NCBI RefSeq assembly: GCF_016026235.1
Contig: NZ_CP065613.1
Origin: Escherichia coli
Lineage (GTDB): Bacteria; Pseudomonadota; Gammaproteobacteria; Enterobacterales; Enterobacteriaceae
Strand: one strand, 5' to 3'
DNA length: 64,000 nt
The notes beneath the pieces are model-generated. The model was not told the DNA's origin, searched no databases, and saw only the letters and a program-made list of their open reading frames with translations. This document shows positions 2,340 through 63,606 of the stretch, one piece after another. How positions within the stretch are numbered: the stretch's first letter is position 1; the number at the start of each line of letters is the position of its first letter. Made by a program: the position numbers and the translations under genes.

Positions 2340-3634
2340 CTGAGGGATCCCCAGAAAATTTAGTAAACCATTATCATATTGGTATACCGTTGCTGTAGAA
2401 CTTTCAGCCCTGCGTCAAGTGACAGTGTGTTTAGTATGAGTGGAGAATGTCGAATCACATTCTCCGCCAGTTTTAATAACGAGATGACTCGCCTGTGCTT
2501 CACTGTATTTGCCTGATATTTATGATGTATCCCTTTGTTTTCCAGGCTGAAACCGCTTAACCACATAATGATACTGGCTAATGTTGCGATCAGACTCAAT
2601 ACCGTGACCCGCCCAGATGAATGACTGGCACCAAACCGTAGTCCAAATCCCCAGCGAGGATTTTTTTCATCCCTGAAATTTTGCTCAATTTGCATTCTAC
2701 GGCTGTATAATTTCATTACCTGTTTTGGCGAGAACTCAGTACTGTTTGTGAAAATAAACCATGGTGATTTCCCGGCAGTACGAGCTTTAGCCGTCACCGA
2801 TGGTCTGGTTGCTCTTTCCTTCGAGCGTTTAAATCTACGACCTTTAGGCTTACTTTTATAAAGATAAAAATGCCCTTCATGTTGTGCATTTTTATCTCGA
2901 CCCAGCAGGCCTTCACCTAAATAAATTGCTGTCGTTGATGCTTTTGTGCCTGAGTCCGACACCTTTTCCCAGCCATTACCAACATTGTAATAATGATTGC
3001 CCAGTACCCGGCAAATATAGGTCCAGCCACGGGAGCGGAGCTGTTGGAACCATCGCCCCTGAAAACCGGCATCTGTAATAACAATGACATCAGTCCCGGG
3101 GGAAAAGCACTCAGCAAGCGATTCCAGAAAACGCTCATGTACATCTGCATTCGCTGTCTGTGATGATGGAACGACACAACTCATCAACGGTAAAGAACGC
3201 CCGTCACATGCCAGGCTTGCCCGCAAAAGCTGAAAACGAGAGGCATGATAAGCACTCCAGTCAATGAGTATCACAACACGAGACATTCCCCGCGTAATCT
3301 TTTGGGTAATTCGCTGAAAAATGGTGGAAACCTCATTTTGCAAATGTCGATTCCCCAACAGTCGATCCACCCGCTTTATTTTGTTTTTAACTGATGCCGT
3401 ACCGGTTAAATGACGCCCGATACTGGTAAGTGTGAGGGAAGCGCCATTTATTACAGCATTAGTTGCGTCAATCAGTGATTTTTGACGGTAAAGATGCAAA
3501 GGGGCCAGTATGTTGTTAAGGAAATTTTGGCATAATGAACGTGCAGGCATAGTGGTGATCTCCTTGAAATTGTTAGCACAATCAATTAGATCACATCTCA
3601 CTATGCCTGTCTTGTTTTCTGGGGATTCCTCAGG
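2340..3634 (-). mobile_element. IS4-family insertion sequence (IS10-like), copy 1, ~1295 bp, flanked by 9-bp direct repeat AGCATGCTC
   Basis: Imperfect terminal inverted repeats CTGAGGGATCCCCAG / CTGGGGATTCCTCAG; duplicated 9-mer at 2331..2339 and 3635..3643; internal transposase ORF. Confidence 0.85.
2360..3550 (-). CDS. IS4-family (IS10-like) DDE transposase
   Basis: Motifs KRVDRLLGNRHL, DAGF, YSRRMQIEQNFRDEK, HKYQANTVKHR resemble the IS10 transposase; start placed at MPARSLCQ by alignment to the IS10 transposase N-terminus. Confidence 0.8.
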   Translation of the reverse strand: MPARSLCQNFLNNILAPLHLYRQKSLIDATNAVINGASLTLTSIGRHLTGTASVKNKIKRVDRLLGNRHLQNEVSTIFQRITQKITRGMSRVVILIDWSAYHASRFQLLRASLACDGRSLPLMSCVVPSSQTANADVHERFLESLAECFSPGTDVIVITDAGFQGRWFQQLRSRGWTYICRVLGNHYYNVGNGWEKVSDSGTKASTTAIYLGEGLLGRDKNAQHEGHFYLYKSKPKGRRFKRSKERATRPSVTAKARTAGKSPWFIFTNSTEFSPKQVMKLYSRRMQIEQNFRDEKNPRWGFGLRFGASHSSGRVTVLSLIATLASIIMWLSGFSLENKGIHHKYQANTVKHRRVISLLKLAENVIRHSPLILNTLSLDAGLKVLQQRYTNMIMVY

Positions 3635-7104: not shown

Positions 7105-8619
<1,515 letters not shown>

Positions 8620-20668: not shown

Positions 20669-23409
20669 ATGATTACAAAAGATATAGTTGTTAGTGCATA
20701 TAATTGTCTTAAGTCATATGCTTACTACGAAAACTTAAATTTTTTCCTAAAGGAAGAAATCGCTCAATTTGAAGATTCTCTCTATGACGAAAAAATAGAA
20801 AAAGTGGTTGATTTTTTTGAAAATAATAATGACATTAACTTTAATGAGTGGCTAAATAAAATTGATGTTGAATTATTACCAAAAAAAATTGATAGCCATT
20901 TGGATATTGAGCAAACGAGCGGAGCTCTTTTTTTAAGTAATAATAAGACATCAGATGAATACAAAGTAGGTGCTGTAAATTATTTGATCGTTGCTCCTAT
21001 TGAAATATATTTAATAGAAACACTCTGGTCTATCTTTGTTGGTTCAATGCTAGATGACAAGTTTTCTGATTCGGTTTATGGAAATAGAATATCAAAAGTA
21101 ATAAAAAATATTCTAAGAATAGTTTCGATGCGCCAAAAAACTCCTCAAAAAATATCTTTGAAAGATACATTGATAATTATAATAAATGGCGAGATGGTGG
21201 TATCGATAAAGCGATAGAAGTTATAGAAAAAGAGCGAAATGATGTTGCAATTCTTTCTCTGGATCTTAAGGGTTTTTATTATAATATAGATATAGATTTT
21301 GATGCCATTGATAGAATTATTGACGAAGAACAATTAGAAGAAATTAAAGCTCTTTCTATGTTGTTGAATAGTAAATTGAGGTTGATGCATCAAAAATACA
21401 GAGAGAAAATATCTCCATATATTGGTGTGACACATTCAACTCCTTCATCAAAAGGCATTCCAATTGGATTTACTTCTTCTGCCATATTATCTAATTGGTA
21501 TTTAATGGGTTTTGATAAAGATATTAAATCAAAAATTAACCCATCGTACTACGGTCGCTATGTGGATGATATTCTTTTAGTTTTTTCATCCCCGGACATT
21601 AAAAAAGAAGATAAAGGTGAAGAAGTAATAAAATTCATAGAGCGAACCCTTAATGGATTCATTAAACAGGCAGCGAATGATGAGAAAGGCTTTACGTTGA
21701 CCGAGAGTTATCATGAATTACCAATTCAAAAGGATAAATTGATTTTTCATTATTTCAATAAAGATCATAGTTTGGCTGGTTTACAAGTCTTCAAACAAGA
21801 AATTGAGAACAGAAGCAGTGCATTTCGTTTTTTACCGGAAGAACATATATCTAGCGATCTCGATAAATTTGCTTATGATATATTACTTGATGGTTCGGCA
21901 AATAAATTTAGAAGTATTGTAGGTTTGGCAGAGAATGAAACTGAATTATCAAAATATATATCATCACATATCTTAGCTCATAGGCTTTGCAATCTTCCAT
22001 CGAATGAGAATACCTTAAAGCAAATAACGCTGTTTTTTAAAGGTGAAAATTCTCTAAGGTTCAGTCGGTTATGGGAGAAAGTTCTATCGTATACATTAAT
22101 TACAAGAAAATATGGATTTTCAATCGCCTTTTACAAACAAATTAAAGAATCAATTAATAAAATTAAGTGGAAGGAAGGTGATAGTGTTATATCTCCAAAA
22201 CTTAAAAATGGAATGCAGAAATACATTGATATTTCTCTTTGTTTGAATTTGGCTTTGTTAGATTTAAATGTCATTTTAGGTGATAAAGAGCCACAAAATA
22301 GAGCTTTGGAAGGTTTGAAATCTTTAATTAAACAGTCCGATGGAATGTCTGTTCTAATTGAAAGATTTAGAAGCAGTAATTTGATTCGTCATAATCTAGT
22401 GTCTTGGCCTTTAGCTAACTATACTAAATATAAAGGAGATCTTACTGAGGAGAATTTATACAGTAAGATGCATGGTATTCCACTTGATAATGATAAATTA
22501 AATAAAACCCCTAGATATATTCATGCTGATGAAAAGCAGCTTTTCGATTTGATTGATGCTCTTCATACAAGAAAACTACATAAGTTTACGCATGAAAATA
22601 AGCATCACTTAAAAAATTGCTCTGTTACTAAGATAAAAGATAATAAAGCTCTTGAAATAAAGGTAGGAATTGATGATAGAAGTGGTAATGACACAATAAA
22701 AGTTGCGTTGGCAAATATGAGAGTTGAACGTCGTAATATTGAAAGTGCTTGCAGAAAAGATCAGTCTCCAAATTTAAGTTATGAACGACAAAGAAACCTT
22801 TATCGTATTCTCAACTCGGCAACTGAAGAAAATGTGCAGATATTACTACTCCCTGAGTTATCAATTCCTGTGTCGTGGTTACCTTTTATGGCAGCACATT
22901 CAAGGAGAAAACAAATATCTTTGATTTTCGGATTAGAGCATTGGGTTATTAACGAACGCGCATATAATATTTTGGTTGAAATGCTGCCTTATACTTCAAA
23001 CTTTAAACACAAATCCAGTATGTTAGTTTTTCGAGTGAAAAATCATTACGCACCTAGTGAGATTACGATGCTGAATTCTTTAAGGTTAAAAATATCCTCT
23101 CCTAAACCTAGTAAACAACGGTATCATTTGATTAAGTGGAAAAACGTATCATTTTCTACATACAACTGTTTTGAACTGGCTAATATCGAGCATAGAGCAT
23201 TATTTCGTTCGCAGTTGGATATTTTATTTGCTTGCGTATGGAATCAAGATATAAATTATTATCAACATATCACTGAGTCAGCGACACGGGATTTACATTG
23301 TTATGTGGCTCAATCGAATACTTCGCATTATGGCGGTTCTTGTGTTCTACAACCGACCAGTAGCACTATTTCAAATAAGATATATGTAAAAGGTGGGGAA
23401 AACCACTGA
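20669..23409 (+). pseudogene. reverse transcriptase-nitrilase fusion (DRT1/UG1-like), with a -1 frame change near 21130-21155 and 3' end severed by IS insertion
   Basis: Frame switch between ORF 20669..21217 and the frame carrying RT motif A (AILSLDLKGFYYNID) and motif C (YGRYVDDILLVF); C-terminal nitrilase-superfamily triad motifs LLLPELSIP, FRVKNHYAPSE, STYNCFELAN; stop codon TGA supplied by the IS end. Confidence 0.7.
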
Positions 23410-24700
23410 GGGATCCCCAGAAAATTTAGTAAACCATTATCATATTGGTATACCGTTGCTGTAGAACTTTCAGCCCTGCGTCAAGTGACAGTGTGTTTAG
23501 TATGAGTGGAGAATGTCGAATCACATTCTCCGCCAGTTTTAATAACGAGATGACTCGCCTGTGCTTCACTGTATTTGCCTGATATTTATGATGTATCCCT
23601 TTGTTTTCCAGGCTGAAACCGCTTAACCACATAATGATACTGGCTAATGTTGCGATCAGACTCAATACCGTGACCCGCCCGGATGAATGACTGGCACCAA
23701 ACCGTAGTCCAAATCCCCAGCGAGGATTTTTTTCATCCCTGAAATTTTGCTCAATTTGCATTCTACGGCTGTATAATTTCATTACCTGTTTTGGCGAGAA
23801 CTCAGTACTGTTTGTGAAAATAAACCATGGTGATTTCCCGGCAGTACGAGCTTTAGCCGTCACCGATGGTCTGGTTGCTCTTTCCTTCGAGCGTTTAAAT
23901 CTACGACCTTTAGGCTTACTTTTATAAAGATAAAAATGCCCTTCATGTTGTGCATTTTTATCTCGACCCAGCAGGCCTTCACCTAAATAAATTGCTGTCG
24001 TTGATGCTTTTGTGCCTGAGTCCGACACCTTTTCCCAGCCATTACCAACATTGTAATAATGATTGCCCAGTACCCGGCAAATATAGGTCCAGCCACGGGA
24101 GCGGAGCTGTTGGAACCATCGCCCCTGAAAACCGGCATCTGTAATAACAATGACATCAGTCCCGGGGGAAAAGCACTCAGCAAGCGATTCCAGAAAACGC
24201 TCATGTACATCTGCATTCGCTGTCTGTGATGATGGAACGACACAACTCATCAACGGTAAAGAACGCCCGTCACATGCCAGGCTTGCCCGCAAAAGCTGAA
24301 AACGAGAGGCATGATAAGCACTCCAGTCAATGAGTATCACAACACGAGACATTCCCCGCGTAATCTTTTGGGTAATTCGCTGAAAAATGGTGGAAACCTC
24401 ATTTTGCAAATGTCGATTCCCCAACAGTCGATCCACCCGCTTTATTTTGTTTTTAACTGATGCCGTACCGGTTAAATGACGCCCGATACTGGTAAGTGTG
24501 AGGGAAGCGCCATTTATTACAGCATTAGTTGCGTCAATCAGTGATTTTTGACGGTAAAGATGCAAAGGGGCCAGTATGTTGTTAAGGAAATTTTGGCATA
24601 ATGAACGTGCAGGCATAGTGGTGATCTCCTTGAAATTGTTAGCACAATCAATTAGATCACATCTCACTATGCCTGTCTTGTTTTCTGGGGATTCCTCAGG
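23406..24700 (-). mobile_element. IS4-family insertion sequence (IS10-like), copy 2, flanked by 9-bp direct repeat GGAAAACCA
   Basis: Same element as copy 1 at a constant offset; duplicated 9-mer at 23397..23405 and 24701..24709. Confidence 0.85.
23426..24616 (-). CDS. IS4-family (IS10-like) DDE transposase
   Basis: Identical protein to copy 1; the ORF-track N-terminal extension crosses the IS boundary and is not part of the gene. Confidence 0.8.
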   Translation of the reverse strand: MPARSLCQNFLNNILAPLHLYRQKSLIDATNAVINGASLTLTSIGRHLTGTASVKNKIKRVDRLLGNRHLQNEVSTIFQRITQKITRGMSRVVILIDWSAYHASRFQLLRASLACDGRSLPLMSCVVPSSQTANADVHERFLESLAECFSPGTDVIVITDAGFQGRWFQQLRSRGWTYICRVLGNHYYNVGNGWEKVSDSGTKASTTAIYLGEGLLGRDKNAQHEGHFYLYKSKPKGRRFKRSKERATRPSVTAKARTAGKSPWFIFTNSTEFSPKQVMKLYSRRMQIEQNFRDEKNPRWGFGLRFGASHSSGRVTVLSLIATLASIIMWLSGFSLENKGIHHKYQANTVKHRRVISLLKLAENVIRHSPLILNTLSLDAGLKVLQQRYTNMIMVY

Positions 24701-34922: not shown

Positions 34923-36179
34923 ATGGATTTCTTTCGTTTTTTGATGAGCGATGTACTTTCCGAACCCGCAGTGCTGGTCGGTTTAATCGCCCTGATTGGC
35001 CTGATTGCACAGAAAAAACCGGTAACCGAATGCATTAAAGGTACCGTCAAGACCATTATGGGGTTTGTGATTTTAGGCGCAGGGGCGGGTTTAGTTGTGT
35101 CGTCACTGGGTGACTTCGCAAACATTTTCCAGCATGCCTTTGGTATTCAGGGTGTAGTGCCGAACAATGAAGCCATTGTTTCCGTAGCGCAGAAAAGCTT
35201 CGGGAAAGAAATGGCGATGATTATGTTCTTTGCGATGGTTATCAACATTATGATTGCCCGTTTCACACCGTGGAAATTTATCTTCCTGACCGGTCATCAC
35301 ACGTTGTTTATGTCGATGATGGTAGCGGTAATTCTGGCAACAGCAGGCATGACCGGCATTACGCTTATAGCCGTTGGCTCTTTGGTTGTTGGCGTGGCAA
35401 TGGTCTTTTTCCCGGCTATTGCGCATCCGTACATGAAGAAAGTGACCGGTTCTGATGACGTTGCCATCGGCCACTTCTCAACATTATCTTATGTATTGGC
35501 CGGTTTCATCGGCAGCAAGTTTGGTAATAAAGAGCACTCGACTGAAGACATGAATGTGCCGAAAAGTCTGCTGTTCTTGCGCGACACGCCGGTTGCTATC
35601 TCTTTTACCATGAGCATAATTTTCCTGGTGACGTGCCTGTTTGCGGGTGCAGATGCGGTGAAAGAGCTTAGCGGTGGTAAAAACTGGTTCATGTTCTCTA
35701 TCATGCAATCCATTACCTTCGCAGCTGGCGTGTACATCATTCTGCAGGGTGTGCGCATGGTGATTGCGGAGATTGTCCCGGCATTCAAAGGTATTTCAGA
35801 CAAGCTGGTTCCGAATGCCAGACCTGCTCTCGATTGCCCGGTCGTCTTCCCTTACGCACCTAACGCTGTACTGGTTGGTTTCCTGAGTAGCTTTGCTGCA
35901 GGTTTAATCGGTATGTTCACGTTGTATCTGCTGAACATGATCGTGATTATTCCTGGTGTGGTGCCGCACTTCTTCGTAGGTGCAGCTGCAGGGGTATTCG
36001 GTAATGCAACGGGTGGACGTCGTGGTGCGATTTTGGGTGCCTTCGCTCAAGGCTTGCTTATTACCTTCCTGCCAGTATTCTTATTGCCGGTGCTGGGTGA
36101 TATTGGTTTTGCTAACACCACCTTCAGTGATGCTGACTTTGGCGCACTGGGTATTTTGTTAGGGATTATCGTTCGCTAA
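34923..36179 (+). CDS. PTS EIIC component (ascorbate-type, SgaT/UlaA-like)
   Basis: 418-aa polytopic membrane protein following EIIA and EIIB. Confidence 0.75.
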   Translation: MDFFRFLMSDVLSEPAVLVGLIALIGLIAQKKPVTECIKGTVKTIMGFVILGAGAGLVVSSLGDFANIFQHAFGIQGVVPNNEAIVSVAQKSFGKEMAMIMFFAMVINIMIARFTPWKFIFLTGHHTLFMSMMVAVILATAGMTGITLIAVGSLVVGVAMVFFPAIAHPYMKKVTGSDDVAIGHFSTLSYVLAGFIGSKFGNKEHSTEDMNVPKSLLFLRDTPVAISFTMSIIFLVTCLFAGADAVKELSGGKNWFMFSIMQSITFAAGVYIILQGVRMVIAEIVPAFKGISDKLVPNARPALDCPVVFPYAPNAVLVGFLSSFAAGLIGMFTLYLLNMIVIIPGVVPHFFVGAAAGVFGNATGGRRGAILGAFAQGLLITFLPVFLLPVLGDIGFANTTFSDADFGALGILLGIIVR

Positions 36180-36418
36180 TATTTTGATGACATTAATATC
36201 CTCCAGGATTTCAGGAACGTGGAGGATATTAATTCCTCTTATTTTCTCCATTTTTCTTTCTTCCAGTCAGGACTGCATCCGATTAATCGTAAGGCAGTAT
36301 GACTTTCTGTGAGACAGATGCTGGCCAACGTGGGATATTTAACGCGGGTTAACATCGTTGTCAGAGCCGCATGGGTGAGCTGTTGCTACACCCCGGTATT
36401 TCCACCACGGAGGCCAGC

Positions 36419-37546
36419 ATGAACAACAATAACACATTGTACGTCGGGTTAGATGTTCACAAAGAATCGATTACTGTCGCTTATGCTATCAATTCAGAAC
36501 CTGTTGAACTGATGGGTAAAATTGGCACATCACCTACTGATATTCAGAATCTTTGTAAACGTCTCAGGTCAAAGTCATCGCAGGTCAGTATCGTTTATGA
36601 AGCGGGGCCCTGTGGTTATGGACTTTATCGTCGGCTGGTGAAATCCGGTTTTGACTGCATGGTCTGCGCCCCCTCACTTATCCCGAAAAAACCGGGGGAG
36701 CGGGTTAAAACCGATCGCCGTGATGCCATCAGACTTGTGCGTTCACTGCGTGCAGGAGATCTTTCTGCTGTCTACGTACCCGGCATTGAAGATGAGGCAT
36801 TCCGGGATTTGGCCCGGGCATGGGCATCTGCCCGCGATGATTTACGGCATGCAAGGCAACGTCTGAAATCGTTTCTTCTGGTTCATGGGGTCCATTATGT
36901 CGGGCGAGCAGATTGGGGCCCTGCACACCGACGCTGGCTCAGCAAATACTCATTCGAAAGTCCCTGGCGACAATTAGCTTTTGACGAACACCGTCGTACA
37001 ATAGAAGACCGGCAGGCACAATGTGAACGGCTGGAATCCGCCCTGAAGGAGGCCGTTACCGAATGGAGGCTGTATCCGGTAGTAGAGGCGCTGCAAGCCA
37101 TGCGAGGGATTCAGTTTATTACTGCGGTTGGATTAATTTCTGAACTGGGTGATCTGACCCGTTTTGAACATCCACGACAACTGATGTCATGGTTTGGTAT
37201 CACGCCATCAGAATATTCATCGGGTGGAAGCAGACATCAGGGCAGCATTACCAAAGCCGGAAACAGCTATGCCAGAAAGCTATTGGTCGAGGCAGCGTGG
37301 AGTTACCGTCATCCGGCACGCATCAGTCCGGCAATACAAAAAAGGCAGGAAAATTTACCCCGCCCCGTCATTGACAGAGCATGGGATGCTCAACTCAGGC
37401 TTTGTAAGAGGTATCGAAAACTTCAGGCCAAAGGAAAGAATGTCAATATTACAATTGTTGCTGTTGCACGTGAGCTGGCGGGTTTTATCTGGGATATGGG
37501 CCGAATAGCAATATCTGTCGCACAACAACCACAATGTCACAAATAA
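36419..37546 (+). CDS. IS110-family transposase/recombinase (DEDD N-terminal domain)
   Basis: Start at MNNNNTLYVGLDVHKESI after GGAGG; C-terminal motif GITPSEYSSGGSRHQGSITKAGNSYARKLL typical of the IS110 family. Confidence 0.8.
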   Translation: MNNNNTLYVGLDVHKESITVAYAINSEPVELMGKIGTSPTDIQNLCKRLRSKSSQVSIVYEAGPCGYGLYRRLVKSGFDCMVCAPSLIPKKPGERVKTDRRDAIRLVRSLRAGDLSAVYVPGIEDEAFRDLARAWASARDDLRHARQRLKSFLLVHGVHYVGRADWGPAHRRWLSKYSFESPWRQLAFDEHRRTIEDRQAQCERLESALKEAVTEWRLYPVVEALQAMRGIQFITAVGLISELGDLTRFEHPRQLMSWFGITPSEYSSGGSRHQGSITKAGNSYARKLLVEAAWSYRHPARISPAIQKRQENLPRPVIDRAWDAQLRLCKRYRKLQAKGKNVNITIVAVARELAGFIWDMGRIAISVAQQPQCHK

Positions 37547-38138
37547 AAAATGAGAATAACCAGTTCCCTGAAGGCGACGTAGCCCGGTACAAGAGTAACC
37601 CACGTTAGCGCTTGGCGACGGCGGAACAAAGCTGATTCGCGACGTAAGAAAGTGGCAGGCTCATATGACGGACCTCTGTAATGCGGTATCCAACCCGCGA
37701 ATATCAGCGTGATTCACCGTCGGATTTACTGCTACGTCGCCCTCAGGGAATTAAACCTAAAAAGAAAATCGTCAAAATTAGAGATTCCGGTTTGACACGG
37801 AAAGTCATATCAGCGCTGACGGGTGACCCTAAGCCCTGATAATCATAGCTTAAGGTGAGGATTTATGAGGGATTAATTAGGAAAAGTAATAATTAATTTG
37901 TTGTCAGTCGGCGATGTTTGTTAGGCCAATATTTCAAAAATAATCCAGCTTGTCGTCAATAATTGCGATAAAGAGATAAATTAAAGTTAAATAATTAAAT
38001 CATTAAAAAATTACGCCATTAAAATGCGAGGCGTCTTCCGGATTAGAATCGATAAAACAGAATGGGTTAAAGAGAGCGATATAATAGCGGCGGGTGCTTG
38101 AGGCTGTCTGTCTCAGGCATTAGCTGAACGGCAGATAG

Positions 38139-38193
38139 AGAAAAGCCCCGAGTGATATTTTACCATCAACCCGAGGCCCCCTATATGCTGAAC
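38139..38193 (-). ncRNA. sokC: putative Sok-type antisense RNA of the hok/mok locus (position inferred, not seen)
   Basis: Inferred from the canonical hok/sok layout, in which the antitoxin RNA is antisense to the mok start region; no promoter or terminator verified. Confidence 0.3.
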
Positions 38194-38394
38194 ACATGTA
38201 GAGTGCCTCTTACTGACCGTAAGGTCAAGGAGAAGAGAGCAATGAAGCAGCATAAGGCGATGATTGTCGCCCTGATCGTCATCTGTATCACCGCCGTAGT
38301 GGCGGCGCTGGTAACGAGAAAAGACCTCTGTGAGGTTCACATCCGAACTGGCCAGACGGAGGTTGCTGTTTTCACGGCTTACGAATCCGAGTAA
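38185..38394 (+). CDS. mokC: Mok-type translational coupling frame overlapping hok
   Basis: 69-codon frame starting MLNTCRVPL that ends at the same stop as hok. Confidence 0.6.
   Translation: MLNTCRVPLTDRKVKEKRAMKQHKAMIVALIVICITAVVAALVTRKDLCEVHIRTGQTEVAVFTAYESE
38242..38394 (+). CDS. hokC: Hok/Gef-family type I toxin (50 aa)
   Basis: MKQHKAMIVALIVICITAVVAALVTRKDLCEVHIRTGQTEVAVFTAYESE, a single-TM Hok family peptide. Confidence 0.85.
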   Translation: MKQHKAMIVALIVICITAVVAALVTRKDLCEVHIRTGQTEVAVFTAYESE

Positions 38395-38417
38395 GAGCAA
38401 CGGCGGGGAGTGATCCC

Positions 38418-39712
38418 CTGAGGGATCCCCAGAAAATTTAGTAAACCATTATCATATTGGTATACCGTTGCTGTAGAACTTTCAGCCCTGCGTCAAGTGA
38501 CAGTGTGTTTAGTATGAGTGGAGAATGTCGAATCACATTCTCCGCCAGTTTTAATAACGAGATGACTCGCCTGTGCTTCACTGTATTTGCCTGATATTTA
38601 TGATGTATCCCTTTGTTTTCCAGGCTGAAACCGCTTAACCACATAATGATACTGGCTAATGTTGCGATCAGACTCAATACCGTGACCCGCCCGGATGAAT
38701 GACTGGCACCAAACCGTAGTCCAAATCCCCAGCGAGGATTTTTTTCATCCCTGAAATTTTGCTCAATTTGCATTCTACGGCTGTATAATTTCATTACCTG
38801 TTTTGGCGAGAACTCAGTACTGTTTGTGAAAATAAACCATGGTGATTTCCCGGCAGTACGAGCTTTAGCCGTCACCGATGGTCTGGTTGCTCTTTCCTTC
38901 GAGCGTTTAAATCTACGACCTTTAGGCTTACTTTTATAAAGATAAAAATGCCCTTCATGTTGTGCATTTTTATCTCGACCCAGCAGGCCTTCACCTAAAT
39001 AAATTGCTGTCGTTGATGCTTTTGTGCCTGAGTCCGACACCTTTTCCCAGCCATTACCAACATTGTAATAATGATTGCCCAGTACCCGGCAAATATAGGT
39101 CCAGCCACGGGAGCGGAGCTGTTGGAACCATCGCCCCTGAAAACCGGCATCTGTAATAACAATGACATCAGTCCCGGGGGAAAAGCACTCAGCAAGCGAT
39201 TCCAGAAAACGCTCATGTACATCTGCATTCGCTGTCTGTGATGATGGAACGACACAACTCATCAACGGTAAAGAACGCCCGTCACATGCCAGGCTTGCCC
39301 GCAAAAGCTGAAAACGAGAGGCATGATAAGCACTCCAGTCAATGAGTATCACAACACGAGACATTCCCCGCGTAATCTTTTGGGTAATTCGCTGAAAAAT
39401 GGTGGAAACCTCATTTTGCAAATGTCGATTCCCCAACAGTCGATCCACCCGCTTTATTTTGTTTTTAACTGATGCCGTACCGGTTAAATGACGCCCGATA
39501 CTGGTAAGTGTGAGGGAAGCGCCATTTATTACAGCATTAGTTGCGTCAATCAGTGATTTTTGACGGTAAAGATGCAAAGGGGCCAGTATATTGTTAAGGA
39601 AATTTTGGCATAATGAACGTGCAGGCATAGTGGTGATCTCCTTGAAATTGTTAGCACAATCAATTAGATCACATCTCACTATGCCTGTCTTGTTTTCTGG
39701 GGATTCCTCAGG
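38418..39712 (-). mobile_element. IS4-family insertion sequence (IS10-like), copy 3, flanked by 9-bp direct repeat AGTGATCCC
   Basis: Same termini as copies 1 and 2; duplicated 9-mer at 38409..38417 and 39713..39721; target lies in GGGGAGTGATCCCC. Confidence 0.85.
38438..39628 (-). CDS. IS4-family (IS10-like) DDE transposase
   Basis: Identical protein to copies 1 and 2. Confidence 0.8.
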   Translation of the reverse strand: MPARSLCQNFLNNILAPLHLYRQKSLIDATNAVINGASLTLTSIGRHLTGTASVKNKIKRVDRLLGNRHLQNEVSTIFQRITQKITRGMSRVVILIDWSAYHASRFQLLRASLACDGRSLPLMSCVVPSSQTANADVHERFLESLAECFSPGTDVIVITDAGFQGRWFQQLRSRGWTYICRVLGNHYYNVGNGWEKVSDSGTKASTTAIYLGEGLLGRDKNAQHEGHFYLYKSKPKGRRFKRSKERATRPSVTAKARTAGKSPWFIFTNSTEFSPKQVMKLYSRRMQIEQNFRDEKNPRWGFGLRFGASHSSGRVTVLSLIATLASIIMWLSGFSLENKGIHHKYQANTVKHRRVISLLKLAENVIRHSPLILNTLSLDAGLKVLQQRYTNMIMVY

Positions 39713-39801
39713 AGTGATCCCCGCCACTTTACAGGTGCTCGCATATCTTCAACGCACCCTATTTTTACCCAGGCCTGCCCACGGGCAGGCTTTTGGGGAG
39801 G

Positions 39802-40932
39802 TTAGCGGGTCAGGTCGTCAAAAAACTTCTTCACACCATCAAAGAAGCTCTTTGAGCGCGGGCTGTTGTGCTCGCCGGTTGGGCCACCGAAGCTTTCTTG
39901 CAGCTCTTGCAGCAGCTGTTTCTGCTTCTCGTTCAGGCCTACCGGTGTTTCGACGACAACGCGGCACAGCAAATCACCCTGTGCGCCACCGCGGACAGAC
40001 TTGACGCCTTTACCGCGCATACGGAATAGCTTACCGGTCTGGGTTTCGCCAGGCACTTTCAGTTTGACGCGACCATCAAGGGTCGGTACTTCGATTTCGC
40101 CACCCAGCGCCGCCATAGCGAAGTTGATCGGGACTTCGCAATACAGGTTGTTGCCTTCACGCTCGAAAATCGGGTGCTGTTTAACCTGAACCTGAACGTA
40201 CAGATCGCCTGCCGGTGCGCCATGCTCGCCCGCTTCACCTTCGCCCGCAAGACGGATGCGGTCTCCAGTGTCCACCCCTGCCGGGATTTTAACGGACAGC
40301 GTTTTGCTGCGCTCAACACGACCATGACCATGACATTTGTTGCACGGATCTTTGATCAGCGTACCGCGGCCCTGACAGTGTGGACAGGTCTGCTGCACGG
40401 CAAAGAAACCCTGGCGCATCTGCACCTGACCAGAACCATGACAGGTCGGACAGGTCTGCGGCTGTGTACCTGGTTTTGCACCGCTACCGTGGCAAACGTC
40501 ACACTCTTCCAGAGTCGGAATGCGGATCTCTTTGGTCACGCCACGTACAGCTTCTTCGAGGGTGAGCTCCATGTTATAGCGTAAATCAGCACCGCGCGCC
40601 GCACGTTGACGACCACGTCCGCCGCCAAAAATATCGCCGAAAACGTCACCAAAAATATCGCTGAAGTCTGCGCCGCCGCCAAAACCGCCGCCGCCCATGC
40701 CACCTTGCTCAAACGCAGCATGACCATACTGATCGTATGCCGCACGTTTTTGCGAGTCGGTCAGAACTTCATAAGCTTCCTTGATCTCTTTAAATTTCGC
40801 CTCGGCCTCTTTGTCACCCTGGTTACGGTCTGGGTGGTATTTCATGGCCAGGCGTTTGTAGGCCTTTTTGATTTCACGCTCTTCCGCTGTTTTGGAAACG
40901 CCTAAAATCTCGTAATAATCTTGCTTAGCCAT
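39802..40932 (-). CDS. dnaJ: chaperone DnaJ (Hsp40)
   Basis: J-domain with HPD, G/F-rich region and four CxxCxGxG zinc motifs; start at [11 protein letters not shown]. Confidence 0.97.
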
Positions 40933-41020
40933 CTTTTTTAAATTGCCCCTAGATGAATGCACGGGCGGAGAGGAAATTCCCCTTCGCCCGTGTCAGTATA
41001 ATTACCCGTTTATAGGGCGA

Positions 41021-49424: not shown

Positions 49425-49560
49425 GTCAATGCCGGATGCGGCGTGAACGCCTTATCCGGCCTACAAAAGCATGCAGATTCAATATATTGCAGAATTCACG
49501 TAGGCCTGATAAGACGCGCCAGCGTCGCATCAGGCGCTGAATGCCGGATTGTTACCCGGC
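49425..49560. repeat. REP/BIME palindromic repeat cluster
   Basis: GCCGGATGCGGCGTGAACGCCTTATCCGGCCTAC and an inverted partner GTAGGCCTGATAAGACGCGCCAGCGTCGCATCAGGC. Confidence 0.65.
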
Positions 49561-54763: not shown

Positions 54764-54791
54764 GGTTGTTACCTCGTTACCTTTGGTCGAA

Positions 54792-54828
54792 AAAAAAGCC
54801 CGCACTGTCAGGTGCGGGCTTTTTTCTG
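54792..54828 (-). terminator. thr operon attenuator terminator
   Basis: Minus-strand hairpin AAAAGCCCGCACCTGACAGTGCGGGCTTTTTTTT between thrL and thrA. Confidence 0.75.
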
Positions 54829-54843
54829 TGTTTCCTGTACGCG

Positions 54844-54912
<69 letters not shown>

Positions 54913-62993: not shown

Positions 62994-63527
<534 letters not shown>

Positions 63528-63606
63528 GACGGATAAGGCGTTCACGCCGCATCCGGCATTCGGTGCACGATGCCTGATGCGACGCTGCCGCGTCTTATCA
63601 GGCCTA
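63528..63606. repeat. REP palindromic element
   Basis: GGCGTTCACGCCGCATCCGGCA...GCCTGATGCGACGCTGCCGCGTCTTATCAGGCCTAC. Confidence 0.6.

Follow-up and report, generated by a model that had tools for sequence, protein, structure and literature searches.

The closest known relatives of the locus examined here include the plasmid-borne hok loci, among them hok/sok (parB) of R1. They encode a Hok/Gef toxin, overlapped by a mok frame, behind a tac/ucb leader (Rfam RF01794), and their GC-rich 3' stem-loop is followed about 20 nt on by fbi, the fold-back inhibition element, which is complementary to the 5' end (PMC9841398). The full-length R1 mRNA is inert and stable through pairing between tac at its 5' end and fbi at its 3' end. 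Slow trimming of the 3' end to the 3' stem-loop removes fbi, after which the 5' end refolds (tac/ucb) and the mRNA becomes open to mok/hok translation and to Sok binding (PMC9841398). Pairing between ucb and dcb is also part of the hok mRNA model, and mutations that weaken the final 3' stem-loop of processed hok mRNA abolish toxicity (PMC9841398).

The chromosomal counterpart is the hokC (gef)/mokC/sokC locus of Escherichia coli K-12 (b4412/b0018/b4413), which carries IS186A. The passage of PMC7232551 that cites Pedersen & Gerdes 1999 describes the K-12 hok loci as rendered non-functional by IS insertion and by other lesions, and for those loci it agrees with our original prediction that chromosomal hok loci are often inactivated by IS elements. 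In K-12, the hokC fbi is presumed to be disrupted by IS186 and gef mRNA is reported to end inside the IS, and the allele is still transcribed and regulated by antisense RNA (PMC3562002). The word "inactive" may mean altered, not silent, for this allele. The target of IS186/IS421 is GGGG(N6/N7)CCCC (PMC5009759).

We analyzed a window of 64,000 nucleotides of E. coli DNA, which contains a chromosomal hokC/mokC/sokC type I toxin–antitoxin locus situated, as in K-12, between nhaA and dnaJ (Table 1). The hok-family features present are a Hok/Gef toxin ORF, an overlapping mok frame and a structured tac/ucb leader, all of which are shared with the plasmid loci. The hokC ORF (38242–38391, with the stop codon MKQHKAMIVALIVICITAVVAALVTRKDLCEVHIRTGQTEVAVFTAYESE at 38392–38394) encodes a product that matches Pfam HOK_GEF (PF01848) over the full model with an E value of 5.5e-24; its match to the NCBIfam Hok family (E 2e-12) is under the curated cut-off. 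At the DNA level the gene is identical to that annotated WP_000809168.1 in E. coli 042. The ORF reading and the Pfam match thus bear out the original prediction of an intact 50-aa Hok-family ORF with an overlapping mok frame. This frame matches K-12 mokC (b0018), and translational coupling of mok and hok is predicted here.

Table 1. Positions of the features of the interrupted hokC/mokC/sokC locus within the window.
Feature	Position	Strand	Basis or remark
TATAAT, likely -10 box of the hokC/mokC promoter	38080-38085	+	Read from sequence
hok mRNA 5' leader	38092-38244	+	Rfam RF01794 match
tac	38092-38103	+	Leader element
ucb	~38143-38149	+	Leader element
mok SD (GAGG)	38173-38176	+	Leader element
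Sok target region		+	Leader element
Putative sokC antisense RNA gene	38135-38193	-	K-12 b4413 coordinates mapped onto the window
mokC frame, 69 aa	38185-38394	+	ATG at 38185; in frame with hokC, common stop
hokC toxin gene, 50 aa + stop	38242-38394	+	Intact
Left part of split 3'-UTR stem-loop, GGCGGGGAGTGATCCCCGCC	38402-38417	+	Last 10 bp (38408-38417) are duplication copy 1
ISEc60 (IS4 family, IS10-like), 1294 bp	38418-39711	-	99.9% identity to annotated ISEc60 copies over 1294 bp
ISEc60 terminal inverted repeats, 19 bp	38418-38436 and 39693-39711		18/19 positions match
ISEc60 transposase, 396 aa, intact	38438-39628	-	NCBIfam NF033591
Terminator-like hairpin with U-rich tail inside the IS, hokC strand	38518-38555	+	Pattern scan; -17.0 kcal/mol
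Duplication copy 2 (39712-39721) and right arm of split stem-loop	39712-39725	+	Empty-site comparison
fbi element, CTTCAACGCACCC	39747-39759	+	Pairs with tac in the reconstructed IS-free mRNA
Native intrinsic terminator of hokC mRNA (GCCTGCCC-ACG-GGCAGGC TTTT)	39773-39794	+	Sequence reading; fold -22.5 kcal/mol
dnaJ	39802-40962; annotated 376-aa DnaJ, 39802-40932	-	Longer form as listed from upstream GTG

The leader scored 119.5 bits against RF01794, for which the gathering score is 59, and it covered model positions 1–157 (full-length); pairing partners within the leader were taken from partition-function folds. TATAAT likely represents the -10 box, as it precedes the 5' end of the mRNA by 6 nt, a spacing that fits the start of the Rfam leader. 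A simple promoter scan did not list this hexamer, nor did it return a match for the sokC promoter. The sokC stretch differs from that of K-12 by one base, with C in the window (GGCCCCCT) and T in K-12 (GGCCTCCT). The toxin ORF is the same as in K-12, and the hok mRNA region has one base different in the stretch compared.

The IS that interrupts the locus was identified as ISEc60. Its transposase matched NF033591 (IS4-family DDE transposase) with 360.5 bits against a cut-off of 152. All three copies in the window encode the same protein as the annotated ISEc60 copy with transposase WP_001111632.1. The inverted-repeat sequence CTGAGG[G/A]ATCCCCAGAAAA occurs six times in the window, where none would be expected. 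IS186 was considered and rejected on the basis of its termini and transposase; the InsL-type transposase and the CATAAGCGCTAACTTAAGGGTTG terminal repeats of the IS186/IS421 group are lacking in this IS, and a BLASTP comparison with IS186 InsL returned only a 22-aa motif match in the YREK region (E 0.008). The K-12 IS186 is 1345 bp long and encodes a 370-aa InsL, in contrast to the 1294 bp and 396 aa found here. IS10 itself was rejected on account of the 99.9% identity to annotated ISEc60. The original prediction that K-12 carries IS186 at this locus and that the element here is a different one was therefore correct. Because identical IS junctions are present in an independent complete genome (NZ_CP065615.1), the insertion is not an assembly artefact. 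The window and NZ_CP065615.1 agree at 99.9% from position 36289 rightwards and are divergent to the left of ISSso6; the window's left junction at ISSso6 was absent from all complete E. coli genomes searched.

Comparison with the empty site of E. coli 042, which reads GGCGGGGAGTGATCCCCGCC, placed the left end of the IS 23 bp beyond the hokC stop codon, within GGGGAGTGATCCCC, as had been proposed from the window itself. The insertion is in the loop region of a GC-rich 3'-UTR stem-loop that spans 8–27 nt past the stop codon. The target duplication, which had initially been read as 9 bp, is 10 bp (GAGTGATCCC); 14 of the 17 ISEc60 copies examined have a duplication of this length, and in the remaining three, all in one plasmid hairpin, it reads as 11 bp. 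K-12 IS186A occupies the same 20-nt 3'-UTR stem-loop with an offset of 1 bp, and it also has a 10-bp duplication, GGAGTGATCC in place of GAGTGATCCC. From position 38021 through the native terminator, the locus with the IS set aside matches the IS-free locus of E. coli 042 at 100% identity; the three mismatches are all upstream of 38021, and this comparison revealed no extra point mutations in the hokC regulatory elements. As judged by alignment, the IS is the sole lesion of the locus.

Alignment with IS-free hokC showed that the fbi sequence is intact but that it resides beyond the IS, 1304 bp farther from the hok stop codon than in IS-free alleles (the 1294-bp IS and the 10-bp duplication). 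The original prediction had left room for a complete 3' regulatory element upstream of position 38409; none lies there. The native terminator, located between hokC and the end of dnaJ, has been moved to the far side of the IS together with fbi, just as in K-12. Whereas fbi is contiguous with the transcript in the hok family, and in plasmid R1 hok/sok in particular, the 3' module of this chromosomal locus is physically uncoupled by the IS. The locus is thus a disrupted member of the hok/sok family. Comparative support for the assignment of fbi comes from four intact, diverged loci: in the three plasmid hok loci among them, the partner of the 5' end is positioned 48–51 nt after the stop codon, and one of these has a compensatory U4-A to C4-G change in the pairing between the 5' end and fbi.

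RNA folding was performed for the reconstructed IS-free mRNA and for transcripts of the interrupted allele. In the full-length IS-free mRNA, tac pairs with fbi with a probability of ~1.0, while ucb is base-paired to the mok SD. When the same mRNA was ended at its 3' hairpin, tac instead paired with ucb (P ~0.97). A transcript of the IS allele that ends at position 38555 has no fbi partner, and its tac/ucb pairing reaches a probability of ~0.64 while the mok SD is partly unpaired, with unpaired probabilities of up to 0.5. Such a transcript is therefore predicted to fold into an open, processed-like form. The 3' stem-loop, the expected protected end of processed mRNA, is also affected, as the IS shortens it from 8 to 5 base pairs and its energy changes from -18.5 kcal/mol when intact to -9.3 kcal/mol for the remnant. 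What survives at the left junction is a 5-bp GNRA-type hairpin (GGGGA-GUGA-UCCCC), which persists because the IS begins with C, and which might continue to shield the 3' end of a processed mRNA.

The chimeric hokC transcript probably ends at the terminator-like hairpin inside the IS. Note that the terminator-pattern matches (4 found, with 1.8 ± 1.5 expected) and promoter-pattern matches are near chance in number, and both scans were treated as weak leads only. Following the R1 model, hokC transcripts would run into the IS and probably stop at this hairpin, ~125–160 nt in. They would then never gain fbi and would fold straight into the open form, which would be bound by SokC and destroyed by RNase III. 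Because fbi would never be acquired, the stable reservoir of inert mRNA for delayed killing would be lost, leaving the locus crippled despite its intact toxin ORF. The same crippling has been reported for K-12 hokC with IS186. From the sequence and the thermodynamic folds we infer a loss of hokC regulation, and both the displacement of fbi and the folding results support the original prediction that insertion of a different IS probably alters or inactivates this regulation. We consider it probable that the hokC/mokC/sokC locus is intact except for ISEc60 in its 3' stem-loop, that fbi is uncoupled and the locus functionally crippled as a result, and that the position of the insertion was set by target preference.

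The predicted folds could also be read in the opposite direction. An mRNA that is without fbi might always be translatable, resulting in leaky or stress-inducible HokC that acts, for example, in membrane depolarisation or persistence when SokC falls. The open tac/ucb fold of the truncated transcript, its partly exposed mok SD, and the intact hokC ORF and coupling frame are all consistent with such de-repression. However, Sok binds this same open form and thereby exposes it to RNase III decay (PMC9841398), and the sokC region is intact. Moreover, selection would act against a strain that constantly leaked toxin, yet ~30% of complete E. coli genomes carry comparable IS186 alleles. We therefore regard de-repression as unlikely.

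A neutral insertion, which we judge to be slightly less likely still, would require that transcription reads through to the native terminator and that tac finds fbi from 1.6 kb away, such that hok/sok stays regulated. There is a thermodynamic route to the closed form, since tac (nt 1–12) remains paired with fbi in the minimum-energy structure predicted for the 1703-nt read-through RNA, and what points to a terminator within the IS is a consensus match of a kind whose counts are near chance. Nevertheless, ~1.3 kb of extra transcription would give tens of seconds for tac/ucb refolding or for binding by SokC or ribosomes, whereas the short-lived metastable 5' structure of the R1 model only bridges a transcript of ~400 nt (PMC9841398). 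Trimming of the 3' end would in addition need to clear 1.3 kb of RNA, only to stop at the weakened hairpin, and termination inside the IS has been reported for the IS186 allele of K-12 (PMC3562002).

Silencing by an RNA antisense to the hokC coding region, made by read-through from the transposase gene (opposite strand to hokC, ending 20 bp from the IS end) or from a weak outward-facing promoter at the left IS end (a promoter-like match at 38477–38448 on the minus strand that points out of the IS toward hokC), is very improbable, as this match is only 9/12, such matches are not above chance (6 found, with 3.4 ± 1.7 expected), transposase expression would be expected to be very low by analogy with IS10, and the mechanism is superfluous for explaining the loss of fbi.

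The hokC site is uninterrupted in 3815 of 5426 complete E. coli genomes, and the hokC hairpin is interrupted in the other ~30% (~1610 alleles). IS186 alleles account for roughly 30% of complete genomes and are seen in both orientations; the junction counts of 820 and 939 genomes for the two orientations together exceed the number of interrupted hokC alleles, as the queries also catch IS186 beside other hok paralogues, and the split by orientation is thus not specific to hokC. The ISEc60 allele was found in one of the 5426 genomes. The event is of an ordinary, already understood kind, and ISEc60 at hokC is a new allele, through which a second, independent IS family joins IS186 as a known occupant of precisely this hairpin. 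It leaves the current understanding of hok/sok regulation unchanged. When such strains are annotated, the intact hokC ORF should not be counted as a functional toxin–antitoxin module.

The coincidence of two elements at one hairpin has a simple mechanistic reason, which is that the G-run, loop and C-run of the hok 3' hairpin satisfy the target preferences of both transposases. Strong GC hairpins (dG ≤ -12.5) carried nine of 12 ISEc60 copies in their loops, whereas 2.9% of random positions reach dG ≤ -10 (Mann-Whitney p = 4e-6 versus ISEc60 sites). The pattern GGG-N3-8-CC was present at 11 of the 12 copies compared with 1.4% of the background, and one further distinct ISEc60 site fits the target motif. 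This small sample, from ~9 distinct loci in related strains, yields a consensus target of approximately GGG-WWWW-CCC with duplications of 10 bp (occasionally 11 bp), insertion in both orientations, and re-use of sites. ISEc60 and IS186 thus both insert at short G-run/C-run palindromes, even though their transposases are only distantly related. They differ in that the G and C runs are inside the ISEc60 duplication, whereas the GGGG and CCCC of IS186 flank a 6–7-bp core.

Hence, the position of the insertion is better explained by target preference than by selection alone. More broadly, we lean toward the view that at least two distantly related elements of the IS4 family find a natural landing pad in the hok 3' stem-loop, with the palindrome and hairpin-loop targeting of the previously uncharacterised ISEc60 converging on that of IS186, and that the IS inactivation often seen at hok loci, chromosomal and plasmid-borne alike, arises mainly through transposase target choice at this one RNA-structural element. 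On this view, the targeted hairpin happens to be one that neither the inert nor the active form of the mRNA can do without, so toxin counter-selection would not have to be the main cause. A literature search by element name, in which two papers mention ISEc60 four times and once, found no published description of ISEc60 targets, and the sites collected here offer a first sketch of its choice of hairpin loops and terminators. This choice may explain how the element rose to ~38 copies, the number in NZ_CP065615.1, in one lineage with limited gene disruption. Among the hairpin-loop and terminator targets of ISEc60, one adjoins an ibs toxin gene.

The interval 38080–39800 contains a complete hokC/mokC/sokC locus that is split by a single insertion sequence (IS). 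As originally noted, an intact 50-aa Hok-family ORF overlaps a mok frame, and the HokC protein matches the whole Pfam HOK_GEF model (E = 5.5e-24). The region from 38092 to the hok AUG is an end-to-end match to the Rfam hok-leader model RF01794 (119.5 bits versus a gathering score of 59), and the TATAAT ahead of it is probably the −10 box of the hokC promoter. RF01794 is named 'sok antitoxin' in Rfam, yet its match (38092–38244, +) lies on the hok-mRNA strand rather than the Sok strand, and RefSeq PGAP labels the 50-aa hokC ORF 'toxin MokC' (NZ_CP065615.1 and others). Both names can misguide automated readers.

Features of the hokC region and Rfam matches elsewhere in the window
Feature	Position	Strand	Remarks
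ISSso6 (IS110 family)	36289–~37820		
ISSso6 transposase	36419–37546	+	RNA-guided transposase model NF033542, 273.9 bits
TATAAT	38080–38085	+	6 nt ahead of leader; read from sequence
sokC	38135–38193	-	mapped from annotated K-12 sokC
mokC ORF	from ATG 38185	+	69 aa, in frame with hokC
hokC	38242–38391, stop 38392–38394	+	intact 50-aa ORF
ISEc60	38418–39711		1294 bp
ISEc60 transposase	38438–39628	-	intact, 396 aa, IS4-family; NF033591, 360.5 bits (cut-off 152)
fbi (tac partner)	39747–39759		far side of IS from hokC
Native terminator	39773–39794		downstream of fbi
tpke11	40933–41010	-	between dnaK and dnaJ
Ysr276	7864–8058	+	
thr operon leader	54789–54908	-	
naRNA4	63527–63604	+	
ES036	49465–49507	+	

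The inserted element is ISEc60, being 99.9% identical to copies annotated as such, with terminal inverted repeats (CTGAGG[G/A]ATCCCCAGAAAA) that agree at 18 of 19 positions. Its ends bear out the predicted start at 38418, 23 bp past the hok stop codon. The observation is confirmed except on one minor point: the flanking repeat, given before as 9 bp, is a 10-bp direct repeat (GAGTGATCCC at 38408–38417 and 39712–39721), a length shared by 14 of the 17 ISEc60 copies examined (11 bp in the other three, all in one plasmid hairpin). Two more copies in the window (2340–3633 and 23406–24699) are oriented like the hokC copy and encode identical transposases.

In E. coli 042 the uninterrupted sequence reads ...GAGTAAGAGCAACGGCGGGGAGTGATCCCCGCCACTTTACAGGTGCTCGCATATCTTCAACGCACCC...GCCTGCCCACGGGCAGGCTTTT, which places the insertion in the loop region of a stem-loop of 20 nt (GGCGGGGA-GTGA-TCCCCGCC). 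From 38021 to the end of the native terminator, the window and 042 are 100% identical once the IS is set aside, and the alignment contains three mismatches, at 37865, 37970, and 38020; thus the IS is the sole lesion in the hokC locus. K-12 carries IS186A within the same stem-loop, its duplication (GGAGTGATCC) being shifted leftward by one base relative to that of ISEc60; as proposed, a different IS has acted here. The insertion represents a new allele in a familiar class, in which an IS disrupts the 3′ control module of a hok locus on the chromosome. Our analysis adds modestly to this class by identifying ISEc60, by showing that it converges exactly with IS186 on one stem-loop, and by giving a first account of how ISEc60 chooses its targets.

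To assess the 3′ control element, the IS-free mRNA was reconstructed by joining 38092–38417 to 39722–39794 (399 nt). In both minimum-energy and ensemble folds, nucleotides 1–12 (GGGUGCUUGAGG, the 5′ tac element) pair with CUUCAACGCACCC, the fold-back inhibition element (fbi), with P about 1.0, and the mok Shine-Dalgarno sequence pairs with the upstream box (ucb). When this RNA is cut at the 3′ stem-loop, the 5′ end shifts to tac/ucb pairing (P about 0.97), which reproduces the closed-to-open switch known for hok of plasmid R1 (PMC9841398). For comparison, we folded three diverged intact plasmid hok loci with 5′ ends set by the Rfam model, one from E. fergusonii (~75% identical to hokC) and those of Salmonella Typhi pHCM1 and S. 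sonnei, which align over part of the leader only. In all three, the pairing partner of the 5′ end is an element 48–51 nt past the stop that always follows a GC-rich stem-loop, and one tac/fbi pair is altered on both sides among the loci compared (U4-A in hokC to C4-G). Given this arrangement and the location of fbi beyond the IS, no complete 3′ element precedes 38409, and the original interpretation passes the test set for it.

Transcripts from the hokC promoter would now continue into the IS in the antisense direction relative to the transposase gene. A pattern match places a terminator-like hairpin with a U-rich tail at 38518–38555 (ΔG −17.0), and an RNA ending there is predicted to take the open tac/ucb form (P about 0.64) without an fbi partner. 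The IS also shortens the 3′ stem-loop from 8 to 5 base pairs (−18.5 to −9.3 kcal/mol); in R1, toxicity is abolished by mutations that destabilise the final stem-loop of the processed mRNA, presumably through the action of 3′ exonucleases (PMC9841398). The stable inert mRNA pool would be lost, and continuous SokC/RNase III-dependent decay of hokC mRNA would be expected. The toxin gene is intact, but the delayed-killing circuit would be expected to fail. This predicted outcome agrees with PMC7232551, which, citing Pedersen & Gerdes 1999, describes the K-12 hok loci as rendered non-functional by ISs and lesions of other kinds, and with PMC3562002, in which IS186 is considered to disrupt the hokC fbi, the gef mRNA ending within the IS. 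However, the minimum-energy fold of the full 1703-nt read-through RNA still has tac/fbi pairing, and a 5-bp GNRA-type hairpin remains at the left IS junction. As far as sequence, folding, and comparison reach, the insertion probably alters or inactivates hokC regulation, as proposed.

IS186 requires GGGG(N6/N7)CCCC targets, of which K-12 has only 19 N6 sites (PMC5009759); the hokC hairpin contains GGGG-AGTGAT-CCCC. ISEc60 empty sites were reconstructed to read the duplications: GGGAATTTCC, GGGATTTTCC, GGGAAAATCC, GGGATAACCA, GGGATAACCT, GGGGAAACCC, GGGAAAACCA, GGGCTACCCC, GGTAAATCCC, GAGCATGCTC, and GAGTGATCCC. Of the 12 copies examined first, nine fall within the loop of a strong GC hairpin (30-nt ΔG ≤ −12.5), whereas ΔG ≤ −10 occurs at only 2.9% of random window positions (Mann-Whitney p = 4e-6), and GGG-N3-8-CC is present at 11 of these 12 versus 1.4% of background positions. 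Five further copies yielded one new site, which is motif-compatible. Similarity between the IS186 and ISEc60 transposases is confined to the YREK-region motif. Convergent preference for palindromes of the G-run/loop/C-run type best explains why two different ISs occur within 1 bp; the position can be accounted for without selection against the toxin, which may nevertheless contribute to IS retention.

Across sister strains and plasmids, the same hairpins hold ISEc60 in both orientations (comparison loci L008 versus L010/L023; L009, L011, L012, L024; L005) with 10- or 11-bp duplications, and one plasmid carries two copies just 10 bp apart. Such patterns point to repeated use of hot spots, as seen for IS186. 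The window copy at 2340–3633, whose duplication is the palindrome GAGCATGCTC, interrupts a bidirectional terminator-like hairpin (AAAAAAGGCCGGAGC-AT-GCTCCGGCCTTCGTTTT). In EIEC strain CFSAN029787 (L006, NZ_CP011416.1 298122–299535), a copy of ISEc60 interrupts the hairpin GGCGGGGGAAACCCCGC 23 bp past an ibs-family type I toxin gene, making this the second 3′ hairpin of a small toxin gene in which the element has landed.

Among 5426 complete E. coli genomes, the hokC-dnaJ interval is uninterrupted in 3815 and split at the hokC hairpin in roughly 1610. IS186/IS421 junctions occur in both orientations (820 and 939 genomes, counts that include some other hok paralogues), and therefore IS186 has hit the hokC site at least twice. 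ISEc60-hokC junctions occur in one genome only (NZ_CP065615.1). Two distinct plasmid hok paralogues (CP056627.1 and NZ_CP082281.1), one in E. coli and the other in Enterobacter cancerogenus, likewise have IS186/IS421 in the homologous 3′ stem-loop. On Salmonella plasmid CP074638.1 (L016, 864–1011), a group II intron (RF02012, 111.6 bits) begins 18 nt past a hok gene.

ISSso6 lies ~265 bp upstream of the hokC −10 sequence, and its junction with hokC is shared by the EIEC strains. To its left is a PTS ascorbate-type IIC gene in the window (flank 34923–36179) and nhaA in FDAARGOS_943. The window's left ISSso6 junction is absent from all complete E. coli genomes, which suggests an IS-mediated rearrangement. 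The Rfam matches elsewhere in the window are ordinary, and the thr leader match confirms that the window spans, in reversed orientation, the point where the standard E. coli map begins.
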